The notes beneath the pieces were generated by a model, which worked only from the letters and a program-made list of their open reading frames with translations, ran no database searches and was not told the DNA's origin. Below, piece after piece: positions 3,326-23,999 of a stretch of 64,000 bases of DNA. A program made the translations under genes and the position numbers. Each line of letters begins with the position of its first letter. Position 1 is the stretch's first letter. The stretch comes from Escherichia coli (GTDB taxonomy: Bacteria > Pseudomonadota > Gammaproteobacteria > Enterobacterales > Enterobacteriaceae), in the NCBI RefSeq assembly GCF_050920415.1, contig NZ_CP169309.1; one strand, 5' to 3'.

Positions 3326-4453
3326 TTAATCCAGTCCCAGCACACCACGAAGTTGCGCCAGATCTTCCGCCAGCGCAGTAATCGGCCCTTTCAGCGCATT
3401 ACGGTCGGCATCGGTCAGCTTGTCGTAGGTTTCAAAACCGTCTTTAGTACGATATTTCGCCAGAATGGTATCGACCTTTTTGAAGTTAGCATCGACTTTT
3501 GCCAGCAGTTCCGGGTTGGCTTTTTGTAGTTGTGGACGCAGCAGATCGACAATTTTCTGCGAGCCTTCAACGTTAGCCTGGAAGTCCCACAGATCGGTGT
3601 GGCTGTAGCGATCTTCTTCACCGCTGATTTTGCTGGCTGCTACTTCCTCAATCAGTCCGGCTGCGCCGCCGACCACTTTTGAAGGTGGGAAAGCCAGTTC
3701 ACTGATGCGTTTTTGCAAATCGACCACATCGGTATAAAGCTGGTCAGCGTACTGATCCATCCCTTTGGTGGTGTTATCGCCAAACAATGCTTTTTCCAGA
3801 CGGTGGAAACCGGTGAATTTCGGATCGGCGGCTTTTTGCTCGTAATCATCTTCACGGGCGTCAATGCTGCCATCCAGATCGGAGAAAAGTTCAGCAATCG
3901 GTTCAATGCGCTCATAGTGCTGGCGCGTCGGCGCATACAGTGCTTTCGCTTTTTCGATATCGCCTGCTTTAATAGCGTCGGTAAAGGCTTTGGTGTCGGT
4001 CACCAGTTGCGTGGTTTCCGCCATGACATACGCTTTATATGCAGTAATTGCACCACCAAGACTTAACAGCGCATCACTTTGCGCCGCATCCGCCGTTGCC
4101 TCACCTTTGACGATCAACTTCCCTTTCGGGTTAGTCAGCAGACCGCAGGTCATATCGTATTCGCCAGGCTGTAAATTCGCCGTCATTTTCTGGCTAAAAC
4201 CAGGGGCGATATTTTCCCGCTCTTCCACCACCATCACGCCTTTGAGGATCTCCCACTCCAGCGCCTTCTGGCTGTGGTTCTGAATAATGAACTGTGTTTT
4301 CCCGGCGTTAACCGTAATGGTCATCGGTTCGCACTGTTTATCTGTCACAGTGACTTTGACCTGCGGAATATCAGCGGCGTTAGCCATAAAAGCAGAAGAG
4401 AACAGCGCAGCCACGCTCAACTGCAATGCGTTACGGCGGAAGTTAATGGTCAT
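3326..4453 (-). CDS. efeO: EfeO, periplasmic iron-binding component
   Basis: 375-aa ORF with signal peptide, 5 bp downstream of efeB start region; matches recalled EfeO/YcdO. Confidence 0.93.
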
Positions 4454-5460: not shown

Positions 5461-5490
5461 AAATGTAAATTTTTTTTGAGAGAAAATGCA

Positions 5491-5513
5491 GAGGGCAATC
5501 ACTGATTGCCCTC
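5491..5513 (-). terminator. hairpin downstream of putP
   Basis: gagggcaat-cactg-attgccctc stem-loop followed by a U-rich stretch on the minus-strand transcript. Confidence 0.5.
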
Positions 5514-5560
5514 TGCCTGCTTCTGATTATGACGTGGGATTTTCGGTAAAACGCCTTCCC

Positions 5561-18648: not shown

Positions 18649-19263
<615 letters not shown>

Positions 19264-19283: not shown

Positions 19284-19511
19284 ATGCCAACTCAAGAAGC
19301 GAAAGCTCATCACGTCGGTGAATGGGCATCTCTGCGCAATACGTCGCCGGAAATAGCCGAGGCCATTTTCGAAGTCGCCGGGTACGACGAAAAAATGGCG
19401 GAAAAGATTTGGGAAGAAGGTAGCGATGAAGTGTTAGTCAAAGCCTTTGCTAAGACCGATAAAGATTCGCTTTTTTGGGGCGAACAGACCATCGAACGTA
19501 AAAACGTTTAA
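19284..19511 (+). CDS. yccJ: YccJ, small conserved protein
   Basis: 75-aa ORF 20 bp after wrbA with RBS caggagga; matches recalled YccJ. Confidence 0.9.
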
Positions 19512-19517
19512 TCCTGA

Positions 19518-19545
19518 ACCTCCCCCGTGGTGAACGGGGGAGTTT
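19518..19545 (+). terminator. rho-independent terminator after yccJ
   Basis: ctcccccg-tggtgaa-cgggggag stem-loop followed by tttt. Confidence 0.7.
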
Positions 19546-19888
19546 TCGATTATTCATTGACCAACGTCTCATGCCCTGTTATTACTGTGAGATATTCAAT
19601 CACGTTATCAAATAAAAAAATCGATATCATTGCGGTAAGCTTGTTATTGATTATAAATATGGGTAATAAGCGATATCCAGCATGAATTTGATTGTACAGA
19701 GTATTTCCTATATAGCCATTGGTTAAATCTTGAAGATAAGATACCTCCGGCTGAAAAATCCATCCCGGCAATGAAGGATGTGATATTTTCGTAATTCTCT
19801 TGCAGAATAAACAACCCTGGATACGCTCTGAATACAAGGAAATTTTCCAATAAATTATTTATTCATCAATACTCCCCGGCGAGGATCA

Positions 19889-20407
19889 TCAAAATATCTC
19901 ATTATCTTTTAAAACTGCCCAGCCCGTTATAACGGACGTTATCTGGCGCACGCTGAAGTGGGCATGATACTCACTTTCATTAAAATGCTCGACATGATTT
20001 GCTAATCGCTTAGCTAGATAATTGACGTTCAGTCTGTGCCAAATTTTTAGCGAAAAATAGCAAATTTCAAGCCGGGAATTTATCAAAGCATCCTCATTTA
20101 CTTCACCATGAACAATAAAGTCACGCATAAACTGCAGGTGTTTAATTAATAAAATCCATTCACTTTCAGTAAGATAGTTTTTCCCACGCAGATTATAATA
20201 CAGAGATTTGATTAATGGGATCTTCTGCTTATGGCGCTTTGACCGCGCTGAGCACAATATTTGTTCTATCAGGCCAAGCGTCCCTTTCTGACGCAACCAG
20301 CACCGGAGTTCAGACTGCGCGCTAATGCCGCGAGCCACCGACAAATGTATTTGGGTAAGCAATGCGTATAAACCTAATAAAAACGCGTCGTGATAATACC
20401 GCTTCAT
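19889..20407 (-). CDS. hypothetical protein (172 aa), second gene of the AT-rich insert between yccJ and agp
   Basis: ATG at 20407 with good RBS (aaggtggg, 5-6 nt spacing); lies 12 bp downstream of the preceding ORF stop; visibly AT-rich; no homolog recognised; C-terminal RLANHVEH resembles an R-x(4-6)-H motif. Confidence 0.6.
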   Translation of the reverse strand: MKRYYHDAFLLGLYALLTQIHLSVARGISAQSELRCWLRQKGTLGLIEQILCSARSKRHKQKIPLIKSLYYNLRGKNYLTESEWILLIKHLQFMRDFIVHGEVNEDALINSRLEICYFSLKIWHRLNVNYLAKRLANHVEHFNESEYHAHFSVRQITSVITGWAVLKDNEIF

Positions 20408-20419
20408 TACCCACCTTTG

Positions 20420-20788
20420 TTATCGTAATTTTTTAAACAAATAATCATATAAAATTTCGGCAATGAATTCTGCATGTTCACGTCGCACAATGACATTCAT
20501 AACGTAATATTGCGCAGCAATTTCATTGATAAAATGTTCAGGCAGTATGAATACGCGTGCATAAGCCGAGTATATTTCCAGTATTTCATTTGAGATGTTT
20601 TCAAGATCAACGCAATAATTTGTCACATCATAAAAAAGATTAGCGTATTTTTTATTAATTATGCTAAGGCATATAAATGGGGCATTTAATTTTTCACACA
20701 ATTGCCAGTGCGTTCTTTCATTTTCTCCCTTCCATGTATACTTCATTTTGTCAGCCATCCTTTGATTTACGCGTCTGAAGTTTACCAC
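20420..20788 (-). CDS. hypothetical protein (108-122 aa), first gene of the AT-rich insert
   Basis: maximal ORF begins at a GTG (20788); ATG candidates at 20758 and 20746 (MKYTWKGENERTHW, weak AGGA about 11 nt upstream); no homolog recognised. Confidence 0.5.
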   Translation of the reverse strand: MVNFRRVNQRMADKMKYTWKGENERTHWQLCEKLNAPFICLSIINKKYANLFYDVTNYCVDLENISNEILEIYSAYARVFILPEHFINEIAAQYYVMNVIVRREHAEFIAEILYDYLFKKLR

Positions 20789-20893
20789 TGTGTCTGGGGT
20801 AAACCATGCGTTCTATGGTAAAAATTATACGAGATGTGGCGCTGCGTAATATTCTGCTCCCTCAATATATTTCTGGTGAATATGTTCCAGGTT

Positions 20894-20926
20894 AATTGGG
20901 AAGATCTGCATGTGATCTTCCCAATT
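20894..20926. other. perfect 13-bp inverted repeat hairpin at the agp-proximal edge of the insert
   Basis: aattgggaagatc-tgcatgt-gatcttcccaatt; followed by a T-rich stretch on the plus strand only. Confidence 0.6.
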
Positions 20927-20955
20927 TTATGACTACAAAATGTCAATAGCCGGGT

Positions 20956-22197
20956 TTATTTCACCGCTTCATTCAACACGCTATCAAACTTATCCATTGG
21001 GCAGAAACCATCAGCGTCTATCGGGCAGCCGGTTAATTCCAGCGTCACGCGCTGAGCCGGAGCCTGCAACGTTAACGCATCAGCATTACGCAACTGTTCC
21101 GCACTCTGGTACACATATTCAATTTTCATCAAATCGCGATTAGCTTTGCTGTCATGCCAACGCTGGAAAACGATTTTGCCGCCAATCGGCGTGCGTTCGT
21201 TCTGGTCATGCAACTGATACGGTTTGAAATCCAGTGCCGTTAACAGAGAGGCAATGTTTGAGTCGTGCCCCACCAGCACCGTGATTTTCGGTGCACTAGT
21301 TCGATCGGTGACCAGTGCTTTGTCGATATAACTGACCAGCGGTTTCGCAACATTGCGCGCCACTTCCGGTGAGGTAAACAGGCTATCCTGGTAGCCGTTT
21401 TTCAGCTTCGACAATACTTTCCACTGTTGGTCAGTTTTGATCTCTCCCCACGCCACCTGATCCATCGGGAAACCTTCGTAGTATTGCAAAGTAAACGCAT
21501 CTACCAGCGAGTTGCCGACTTTCAGCGGCCCGGAAACGCCCGGTTCTTGTTGATACTTCGCGCTAAAGGTGTTTTTGCCATCTACAAGCGAACACTGTTG
21601 CTTCTCTTTACAGGCAGGAGAATCTTTATAGTTAACGATTTTTTCCAGTAGCTTGTAGCTGTCGGTAAGCTGGAGTTTGCCGAGCTCTTTCTCCATTGCC
21701 GCCACCGCCTGTTCACTGAATGCGGCGGAATCATCGGTGATCACCGGGTTAAAGGTTGGGTCCATGGTGCCCATTTTTTCCTGGTGATGAACAGGAATAT
21801 CACACCCGGGGAATGCGCCGGTAATAAAGAACTGCGCGGTCGCGACGGTGCGTTGCAGACTATTGGCATAGGCATAAACGGTGTCCGGCGGCGGGCATTC
21901 ACCCGATTTCACCATCCCCTGCTCTGCCAGCCATTCACGCATGTAATGGCCCATATACACTTCGAGTACTCCCCCTTTAGTGGTGAGCTGCCCACCGGGA
22001 ACGTCCCATTCTGGCCATTTATTCGGCGTCGACTGCTCCAGCACACTGCCATTGTTCGCCAGCGGCGCACGTAAGTTATGGCGGCTCATCATGAGCACTT
22101 GCTGCAACTGATAGCCTTCCGGTACGGTTTGTGCCTGAGCATTTGAAGCGAGTAAAACTATCCCTGCCACAGCTGCGGCGATTAGCGTTTTGTTCAT
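20956..22197 (-). CDS. agp: Agp, periplasmic glucose-1-phosphatase (histidine acid phosphatase)
   Basis: 413-aa frame from [22 protein letters not shown]; RHNLRAP active-site motif; matches recalled Agp. Confidence 0.95.
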
Positions 22198-22488
22198 TCC
22201 TGGCACCTCTTTTGTTATCAATCACCAAAGAGTGTGACAGAAATATGACATTTTTCCGGGAACAGGTTCGCAAAATGGCTTGTTGAGTGCCTGTTTTTCT
22301 ATATTTGTCATTAAAAAAAGGCAAGATTTGACGCAACCTATACATGATTGGCCCCTGCCTCGTGTACGCCGTTGATGATTTCACCATGGGCTAGACAGAA
22401 TATCACCGACGTTATCGATACAGGGGCAATATTTACTAAAAAGAGAATGTGAGACTAATAAAAACTATTTTAGCACATGTCTTTATCA

Positions 22489-23742
22489 TTAAATGGCATA
22501 ACGATTTAAATAGTCCAGTTGCGCTTTCATTTCCTTATGGTTTAACTGGTATGACTGAGCAAAAAGTTCAGTAGGGAGGTAAACGTCATAATGATTGCCA
22601 GTATTCATTAAATAACCATACTCAAGATCTTCATCCGTTGAAAAGGATTCACTTCCCAAGGAGATTGATCCCACATTACAGGCAACAATAAACAATGAAC
22701 AAATGCTATCTGAAAGCACAGCAAGGAAATTCTTCACCGCTTTAACCTTTTCCGGAGAGTCGGTATTTAAAACAAGCGAACCCTTGTTATCATTAAATAT
22801 AAACTCGGGTAAATGCAATATGCATCTTTCGTCATTCAAGCAACTACCAATGAATTCTTTTTTAAACTTAATAAAATTCGACGCTAAAGAATTACCCATA
22901 TCCTGAATTTGGTTGTCAGAATGCAGATCAACGCCAAATAATGTCTTAATCTCTTCCCTGAGATTAAAGAATGCTGCATCAACAAAAGACTCAATCACTT
23001 GTTTATCAACAATTTTAATAAATTCGTCGTATACTTCTTTTTGCGTCTTTTGACTGCCAAGCGCCCATGAATAATCAACGTGTTTTATAACCAGTATGGC
23101 TCTTAACAGACAATATCCATCGCCATCTACAGGCGCGTATTTTAATTTATGTGCTTGATTAATTTCACTCTGAATAAAAGATATACCAGACAAATCAATA
23201 CCAGTAACTGAATCATATATTCCCGGCGTATTTATCCGTTTTGGCTGGACACTCGTAATTTCATCATCATCAAAGCAATACTCAGAAAAAACATCATTAC
23301 ACTCATTTAAGATATCAACATATGCTATAAATTTATACCAACAGCTACTTTTAAAGCCTGCAATAGCCTGTGAAAACATACCCGGCAAGGATATATTAAC
23401 AAGCTCTCTTTCTTGAAAATATTGTATAGTATAGGTAATGCCTCCTGAATCCCCTGAATAAGTGTTTGTATCATGAGTACGTAATGTTTTCATAAATGAA
23501 GATAAATCATTATCATTTTGCATTTCCTCTAATTCTGTTTCTAGTGATTCACACACCAGGCATGAAATATTTTCTTCTTTCCGCATGATTTCATTGTACA
23601 ACCGCATAAAACACTCTAGTTTTTGTTCAAAAAGCGTGATTGAACATTTTTGATTTTCTTCGCGCCTGGTTTTTATATCGGCCCAGGCTGTTTTCAAATA
23701 ATTATTAGCACTGCAACTTACTCCATGTATATTACTACCCAT
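22489..23742 (-). CDS. yccE: YccE-like uncharacterized protein
   Basis: 417-aa AT-rich ORF between agp and cbpA, the position of yccE in K-12; identity rests on position and size only. Confidence 0.7.
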   Translation of the reverse strand: MGSNIHGVSCSANNYLKTAWADIKTRREENQKCSITLFEQKLECFMRLYNEIMRKEENISCLVCESLETELEEMQNDNDLSSFMKTLRTHDTNTYSGDSGGITYTIQYFQERELVNISLPGMFSQAIAGFKSSCWYKFIAYVDILNECNDVFSEYCFDDDEITSVQPKRINTPGIYDSVTGIDLSGISFIQSEINQAHKLKYAPVDGDGYCLLRAILVIKHVDYSWALGSQKTQKEVYDEFIKIVDKQVIESFVDAAFFNLREEIKTLFGVDLHSDNQIQDMGNSLASNFIKFKKEFIGSCLNDERCILHLPEFIFNDNKGSLVLNTDSPEKVKAVKNFLAVLSDSICSLFIVACNVGSISLGSESFSTDEDLEYGYLMNTGNHYDVYLPTELFAQSYQLNHKEMKAQLDYLNRYAI

Positions 23743-23999
23743 ATATAGCGCCTATAAAATTTAATAAATAATGACGTCCTAGTTAAGCTTAAAATGCCTG
23801 ATTTAACTATCAAAAATCGCTCACCCTTTTACCTGTTTAAACTATGCTCAGCAATCCATCTTGACGCCACCTCCTCTCCACGATGATTTCAATAACATAT
23901 TCTGTGTTGGCATATGAAATTTTGAGGATTACCCTACACTTATAGGAGTTACCTTACAGGGGTTCCTTCAATTTGTGTTGATTTACGCGAGATAACGCT

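Follow-up and report, generated by a model that had tools for sequence, protein, structure and literature searches.

The perfect hairpin at positions 20894-20926 of the window, the 64,000-nucleotide stretch of Escherichia coli DNA analysed here, is an ordinary feature: a further stem-loop of a known kind at the 3′ end of a gene. It arrived with a 1.4-kb AT-rich insert (~19550-20955) that separates the ancestral terminator from the stop codon of agp. It is present in a single copy, and the displaced ancestral terminator persists just beyond the other end of the insert (Table 1). The favoured reading, given a probability of roughly 45%, is that the hairpin is a stem-loop lacking a U-tract at the 3′ end of agp, where it separates agp from a small gene cassette; the functional steps of this reading we infer.

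The hairpin itself is real and is as perfect as the first-pass annotation had described it. Its two 13-nt arms, AATTGGGAAGATC (20894-20906) and GATCTTCCCAATT (20914-20926), are 100% complementary and enclose the 7-nt loop TGCATGT. Folded as RNA in a 66-nt context, the region reaches -22.1 kcal/mol on the plus strand and -21.7 kcal/mol on the minus strand (z about -4.4 and about -4.6, respectively), and none of 200 shuffled sequences is equally stable. Without context, the stem-loop folds at -18.5 kcal/mol (plus) and -17.9 kcal/mol (minus) as RNA; as DNA the hairpin gives -12.1 kcal/mol (z -5.5). Perfect 13-bp inverted repeats with a loop of 3-10 nt are expected 0.01 times per dinucleotide-shuffled window, which places the hairpin far beyond chance. 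The stem is AU-rich, with G-C pairs at 5 of 13 positions. The window holds other perfect hairpins of at least 13 bp, at 5488-5516 and 61262-61293, each with long T or A runs beside it. A gap of 29 nt parts the new hairpin from the agp stop codon (20956-20958), in line with the 30 bp given earlier, and on its other side 147 nt lead to the first cassette gene, upstream of which the hairpin lies.

Table 1. Features at the insert-bearing yccJ-agp junction, in window coordinates. Gene annotation is that of RefSeq for strain MFDS1022581, to which the window is 100% identical.
Feature	Position	Strand	Remarks
yccJ	19284..19511	+	last gene of wrbA-yccJ; 99.6% identical across all lineages
Ancestral terminator of wrbA-yccJ and agp	19520..19542	.	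stem as in the K-12 37-bp spacer; terminator-like in the scan
Cassette gene 3	19550..19850	-	degraded in the window; intact in N3 and L007-L009 (100-104 aa)
Cassette gene 2, 172-aa protein	19889..20407	-	relatives directly 3′ of PAAR-Rhs toxin genes
Cassette gene 1, 108-aa orphan protein	20420..20746	-	homologues in E. coli only
Leader, hairpin to first cassette gene	20747..20893	-	non-coding; perfect TATAAT at 20829-20824, poor -35
Unannotated 29-codon ORF	20806..20895	+	TAA stop overlaps the foot of the stem
Hairpin	20894..20926	.	13-bp arms, 7-nt loop, two GATC in the top of the stem
Spacer, hairpin to agp stop	20927..20955	.	29 nt; agp-side insert boundary at ~20951-20955
agp (glucose-1-phosphatase)	20956..22197	-	RefSeq annotation of MFDS1022581; reads towards the hairpin

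The insert differs from its surroundings in composition (G+C 33-41%, against roughly 50% in the flanks). The similarity of the window to K-12-type genomes starts at 20956, precisely with the agp stop codon. The hairpin belongs to the insert, whose agp-side boundary is 25-29 bp away. In K-12, the convergent genes yccJ and agp are separated by a 37-bp spacer that carries the hairpin CTCCCCCGCttctcGCGGGGGAG followed by TTTTCTG, mapped by RNA-seq as a terminator common to agp and wrbA-yccJ (T-1066062; Conway et al., 2014, PMC4161252). The hairpin of K-12-type junctions, CTCCCCCGC..GCGGGGGAG, is different from the new one and persists in the window at 19520-19542, so the new hairpin is not the ancestral bidirectional agp/yccJ terminator. 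The comparison with insert-less genomes that the first-pass annotation had proposed is thereby answered: those genomes carry a different hairpin (5401 of 5417 are of K-12 type), and the new hairpin came with the insert.

The GC-rich ancestral terminator still adjoins yccJ in the window; agp now lies 1.4 kb away from it, beyond three genes. The stop codon of cassette gene 3 falls 37-38 nt from the yccJ stop, the place that the agp stop occupies in K-12. Judged from these junctions, the insertion of the cassette fell precisely between the stop codon of agp and its former terminator, the one in common with wrbA-yccJ. The pentamer TTATT is common to both insert junctions (19548-19554 and 20951-20960) and could reflect a 5-bp microhomology, a target duplication or chance in AT-rich DNA.

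The ancestral terminator was also compared at L002 (2969-2991), L003 and L007. Its stem is essentially conserved across the lineages, with a small change in N3, and its loop reads ttctc with an extra C-G pair in K-12 and tggtgaa, cagtgtgaa or tagcgaa in the other lineages; a stem that is kept while the loop varies is the pattern that would be expected of a functional terminator. The wrbA-yccJ side of the locus is 97-100% identical to K-12, and the agp-side segment (20956-23850, covering agp and yccE) is hypervariable, agp showing ~91-99% identity per 100 nt and yccE 73-95%. In L007, divergence from K-12 peaks in the first 100 nt of agp beside the insert (92%), and scattered blocks of lower identity follow further on; this unevenness implies that the alleles are mosaic. 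A perfect TTGACA (20941-20946, minus strand) stands directly 3′ of the agp stop without a usable -10 hexamer at a spacing of 15-19 nt, the nearest good hexamer (TAAAAT) being 11 nt away, and is probably not a promoter.

Its weak tails and the failure of a simple terminator scan to call it show that the hairpin is no canonical intrinsic terminator, whichever strand is considered. The stem-loop is stable (13 bp, about -18 kcal/mol, z about -4.5); its stem is not G+C-rich, and no proper U-tract stands directly 3′ of the stem on either strand. The first-pass annotation had assigned a U-tract to the plus-strand transcript only and had seen no obvious agp terminator in the hairpin. Both points hold, since the agp-sense strand has no U-tract and the sole U-run is on the plus strand, though it is short, interrupted and preceded by AA. 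The plus-strand tail reads TTATGACT after the whole stem and AATTTTAT after the 9-bp GC core only, and the agp-sense tail reads AACCTGGA; U makes up 4-5 of the 8 bases after the stem on the plus strand and 1-2 in the agp sense. The hairpin follows agp on the minus strand. On the plus strand, where the tail is better, no annotated gene lies upstream, as the earlier reading had remarked, and the only candidate there is the unannotated 29-codon ORF.

The classical discriminant for hairpin-plus-tail terminators is reportedly that of d'Aubenton Carafa from 1990. Computed here with modern energies, its values are approximate: +52 in the yccJ sense (plus strand) and +13 in the agp sense (minus strand) for the shared K-12 terminator, -2 (to -17) and -35 to -28 for the new hairpin, and -19 and -5 for its L007 variant.

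A class of Rho-dependent 3′ ends has been described in which a stable stem-loop is not followed by U-rich sequence (Dar and Sorek, PMC6061677). The hairpin presents what a protective 3′ stem-loop would: a stable structure soon after a stop codon with no U-rich tail. Downstream in the agp sense, the C/G ratio in 78-nt windows is 1.1-1.7, a mild excess over a background with a median of 0.95 and a 90th percentile of 1.44, and this bias is weakly compatible with a Rho-dependent end. The possibility that agp continues, or that an ORF reads through the hairpin, was considered and set aside: 58 codons past the agp stop are open in the window, and the frame is closed by a TAG in L007.

In carriers of the insert, agp transcripts would meet a stem-loop 29 nt past the stop codon. 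The stem-loop most likely would act as RNA, as the replacement 3′-end structure of agp. It could pause or weakly stop RNA polymerase, and Rho would then probably complete termination within the untranslated 147 nt downstream. By blocking 3′-to-5′ exonucleases, the same structure might define and stabilise the end of the agp mRNA. The cassette, which apparently has a -10 element of its own, would be insulated from agp transcription, and antisense transcripts running out of the cassette in the direction of agp may also be stopped, by the short plus-strand U-run.

Several observations count for this agp 3′-end role. With the ancestral terminator displaced to 19520-19542, a replacement 3′-end structure for agp is the most economical explanation, and the succession of agp, stem-loop, perfect TATAAT and a next gene on the same strand is the usual order of gene, stem-loop, promoter and gene. 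The stability of the stem-loop and the C/G ratio downstream are further points in its favour. The change of the agp-sense discriminant from -35 to -5 in L007, with a stem pair kept as U.G, speaks for a function in that sense, and the lack of an Rfam family, of a second copy and of a partner at the far end of the insert supports the same role by exclusion. Against it stand the agp-sense tail with 1-2 U in 8 bases, the negative discriminant, the missing scan call and the AU-rich stem. The same is true of the restriction to three lineages, the lack of compensatory change, a conservation like that of the flanks and the mildness of the C/G bias.

The alleles of the insert fall into three sequence lineages only (the window type, N3, and L007/L008/L009), and two stem changes are all that they offer for comparison. 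The arms are invariant in all five complete-genome carriers, and N3 has a single A-to-G substitution in the loop. In L007, L008 and L009 the arms read AAATGGGAAGATC and AATCTTCCCAATT, with two changes, both at the ends of the stem. At the DNA level neither is compensated and a 9-bp core is left. In agp-sense RNA, with one of them a U.G wobble replaces a C-G pair, pairing is kept and the stem has 10 bp; in plus-strand RNA the same change is a C.A mismatch, and the plus-strand stem-loop falls to -10.9 kcal/mol. The other change makes the agp-sense tail read CCCA followed by UUUAACC. Resting on two substitutions, the L007 changes hint at a signal that is specific to the agp-sense strand. L007 also loses one of the GATC sites of the hairpin.

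Identity to L007 is 94% for the hairpin, 92% for the leader and 88% for the cassette genes. Conservation of the hairpin does not significantly exceed that of its flanks, and the difference is not convincing. The leader is 98.6% identical to that of N3 and 91.8% identical to that of L007, slightly above the cassette genes, and the 108-aa protein of L007/L008/L009 is 84% identical to that of the window.

The leader TATAAT is conserved in L007 and, on its sequence, could drive the cassette. On the opposite strand, 8 of the 10 codons of the 29-codon ORF that differ across lineages are non-synonymous, and the ORF is probably not coding; a BLASTP comparison finds no similarity to WrbA. A remnant of a wrbA-like 3′ end (19222-19239 against 20875-20892, 15 of 18 nt identical) was also entertained and rejected, the match being at chance level and BLASTP giving no alignment.

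None of the three cassette proteins matches Pfam, PADLOC or NCBIfam; no DNA-binding domain was found in them, and no integrase, transposase or recombinase gene is present in the insert. The AlphaFold model of the 108-aa protein is too poor to judge its fold (pLDDT 46), which might include a cryptic helix-turn-helix. The ~100-aa gene 3 protein likewise has homologues in E. coli only; in the window the gene is split into two overlapping ORFs of 95 and 68 aa, and intact copies lie at 1510-1824 of L003 and 4880-5182 of L007. In N3, WL297 and 2013C-4282, the annotation gives the 172-aa gene 360 bp instead of 519 bp. The cassette thus seems to be decaying in some lineages.

The 172-aa protein has 10 relatives among 1.84 billion representative sequences. 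In two branches of the family (37% and 31% identity), the gene immediately follows a PAAR-Rhs toxin gene: the Rhs genes end at 4004 and 4001, and the genes in the immunity position both start at 4001 (4001-4534 in L011 and 4001-4498 in L014). Side-by-side reading of the translations shows C-terminal toxin domains that look clearly similar in the two Rhs proteins. A gene directly 3′ of an Rhs toxin gene is the standard toxin/immunity arrangement (PMC3150448). No significant tblastn match to the Rhs C-terminal domains, and hence no toxin remnant, was found in the window. Relatives directly after toxin genes, combined with the lack of a toxin at the locus, are found for the 172-aa protein only, and for this reason its gene is read as probably an orphan Rhs-type immunity gene. 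Taken whole, the insert looks like a small cassette of orphan immunity-type genes, with no Rhs or T6SS locus anywhere near it.

Of 5426 complete E. coli genomes, 5 carry the insert, each time at the yccJ-agp junction, and a contiguous K-12-type yccJ/agp junction is found in 5401 of 5417 E. coli genomes. Only 5 of the remaining 16 are explained by the insert; the other ~11 might hold other insertions at the same site. A metagenome scan with a conserved flank returned two human-gut contigs, both of the N3 type. Neither the plasmid nor the phage collections contain a match to the insert, and a plasmid or phage origin was discarded on that ground. The 100,044 species representatives lack the insert as well.

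The search for further copies of the hairpin, also proposed in the first-pass annotation, likewise gave none in any genome. The 86 nt around it have no further match in any E. coli genome outside the five carriers, the exact hairpin has no copy in one genome each of 100,044 species, and no second copy exists within the window or any E. coli genome. Its single-copy status, which holds for the window and across the E. coli genomes, also removes the hairpin from the REP elements, MITEs and IS ends. When the loop is left free, the 9-bp core has 9 matches among species representatives, all in unrelated phyla, where roughly 4-9 would be expected by chance on the author's own estimate. Rfam 15 contains no matching family: the best overlapping hits reach 16-19 bits (E above 2), and the gathering scores are 54-100.

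The hairpin might also do nothing at present. As a functionless relic, it would be a structure from the donor (for example, the terminator of a neighbouring gene) or a by-product of insertion, retained while the insert is young or rarely recombines. This is unlikely, although the rarity of the cassette (5 of 5426 genomes) agrees with it, as does its decay, seen in the broken gene 3 of the window and the shorter gene 2 annotation in three carriers. The uncompensated L007 substitutions at the DNA level and a conservation no better than that of the flanks point the same way, and TTATT at both junctions would fit illegitimate recombination. Elsewhere in the insert the lineages have diverged by up to 12-18%, yet each keeps a stem of at least 9-10 bp in place, and a perfect 13-bp palindrome would be unlikely to survive such divergence without constraint. 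An intrinsic terminator on the plus strand, a rather unlikely alternative, would end a short transcript (ORF, noncoding RNA or spurious antisense RNA) from the divergent promoter region and so keep transcription from running antisense into agp. The only U-run, AAUUUUAU after the 9-bp GC core, is on that strand, the discriminant is best there (about -2 against -35 in the agp sense), and the polarity is that of the ancestral terminator. The 29-codon ORF, whose TAA overlaps the foot of the stem, has GGGG 6 nt before its ATG and is open in all lineages, and a weak -10 (TATACT at 20737) lies upstream. Even so, the discriminant is below zero, the U-run is short, interrupted and placed after AA, and the non-synonymous codons of the ORF (8 of 10) show no trace of purifying selection. 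The L007 version has a C.A mismatch for its closing pair in a stem-loop of -10.9 kcal/mol, no convincing promoter was found, and Rfam offers no match.

The suggestion of a protein-binding palindrome, made in the first-pass annotation, is not supported. An operator would let a dimeric regulator, encoded by the host or by the cassette, control the cassette promoter, possibly with the involvement of Dam methylation. The symmetry of the palindrome is perfect, the centres of its half-sites are 20 bp apart and thus on the same face of the helix, and its two GATC sites are 11 bp apart in the stem. The palindrome, its centre at about -93, also precedes the only perfect -10 of the leader, itself slightly better conserved than the cassette genes. 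What makes an operator improbable is that Pfam, NCBIfam and PADLOC reveal no DNA-binding domain in the three cassette proteins and that no second copy exists anywhere, hence no regulon. In addition, the palindrome does not cover the -35/-10 region, lying ~65 bp upstream of the TATAAT with its centre ~83 bp upstream; one GATC is lost in L007, and arms of 13 bp exceed typical half-sites. A bolder proposal, and a long shot, treats palindrome and leader as a regulatory module of the cassette. The palindrome would then be either an operator for a cryptic DNA-binding protein, such as the 108-aa orphan (possibly Dam-sensitive), or the terminator of a divergent 29-aa micro-protein or small RNA controlling the orphan immunity genes. 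A role in recombination or mobility, as a terminal inverted repeat or an attC-like or REP-like site, is largely refuted and very improbable, and the earlier idea that the hairpin marks the insertion junction is likewise unsupported. It is true that no more than 30 bp part the hairpin from the insert boundary and that palindromes are common at such sites. However, nothing at the other boundary resembles it (the alignment scores 9, and the null mean is 10.4), genes for an integrase, transposase or recombinase are lacking from the insert, and inspection finds no integron core sites (GTTRRRY / RYYYAAC). The hairpin, moreover, is single-copy in each carrier genome and absent elsewhere, and the plasmid and phage collections lack the insert.

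On its own, the hairpin is of little consequence, a stem-loop in an allele that ~0.1% of sequenced E. coli have. The locus offers a small example of a foreign cassette that landed exactly between a stop codon and a terminator, bringing its own stem-loop on one side and borrowing the shared terminator of the host on the other. The cassette persists as three diverged alleles within the hypervariable agp-yccE segment. Apparently a set of orphan immunity-type genes, it is relevant to the ways in which bacteria gain defence against one another and introduces no new principle.

The putative agp 3′-end stem-loop resembles the class described in PMC6061677 in being stable, in lying soon after a stop codon without a U-rich tract, and in a slight excess of C over G downstream. 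It differs from that class in belonging to a rare accessory insert rather than to the core genome and in the mildness of its C/G bias.

The shared K-12 terminator lies at a similar distance from the agp stop (8 nt in K-12, 29 nt here) and has the same polarity, with a U-run in the yccJ sense and a poor tail in the agp sense. The two hairpins are unrelated in sequence, and G-C pairs make up 5 of 13 here against 9 of 9 in K-12 (8 of 9 in the window copy). The U-tract of the new hairpin is far weaker (discriminants of -2 and -35 against +52 and +13), and it faces no convergent annotated gene. The two hairpins of the window that look like canonical intrinsic terminators (5488-5516 and 61262-61293) likewise have a long perfect stem, a short loop and a place at a gene end, but in them 6-8 U directly follow a GC-rich stem, which the new hairpin lacks.

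REP elements are intercistronic stem-loops that stabilise the upstream segment of an mRNA and occur in hundreds of copies per genome. The new hairpin is single-copy and has no REP consensus, but as a stem-loop without a U-tract between genes on the same strand it could, like them, give agp and the cassette different mRNA levels.
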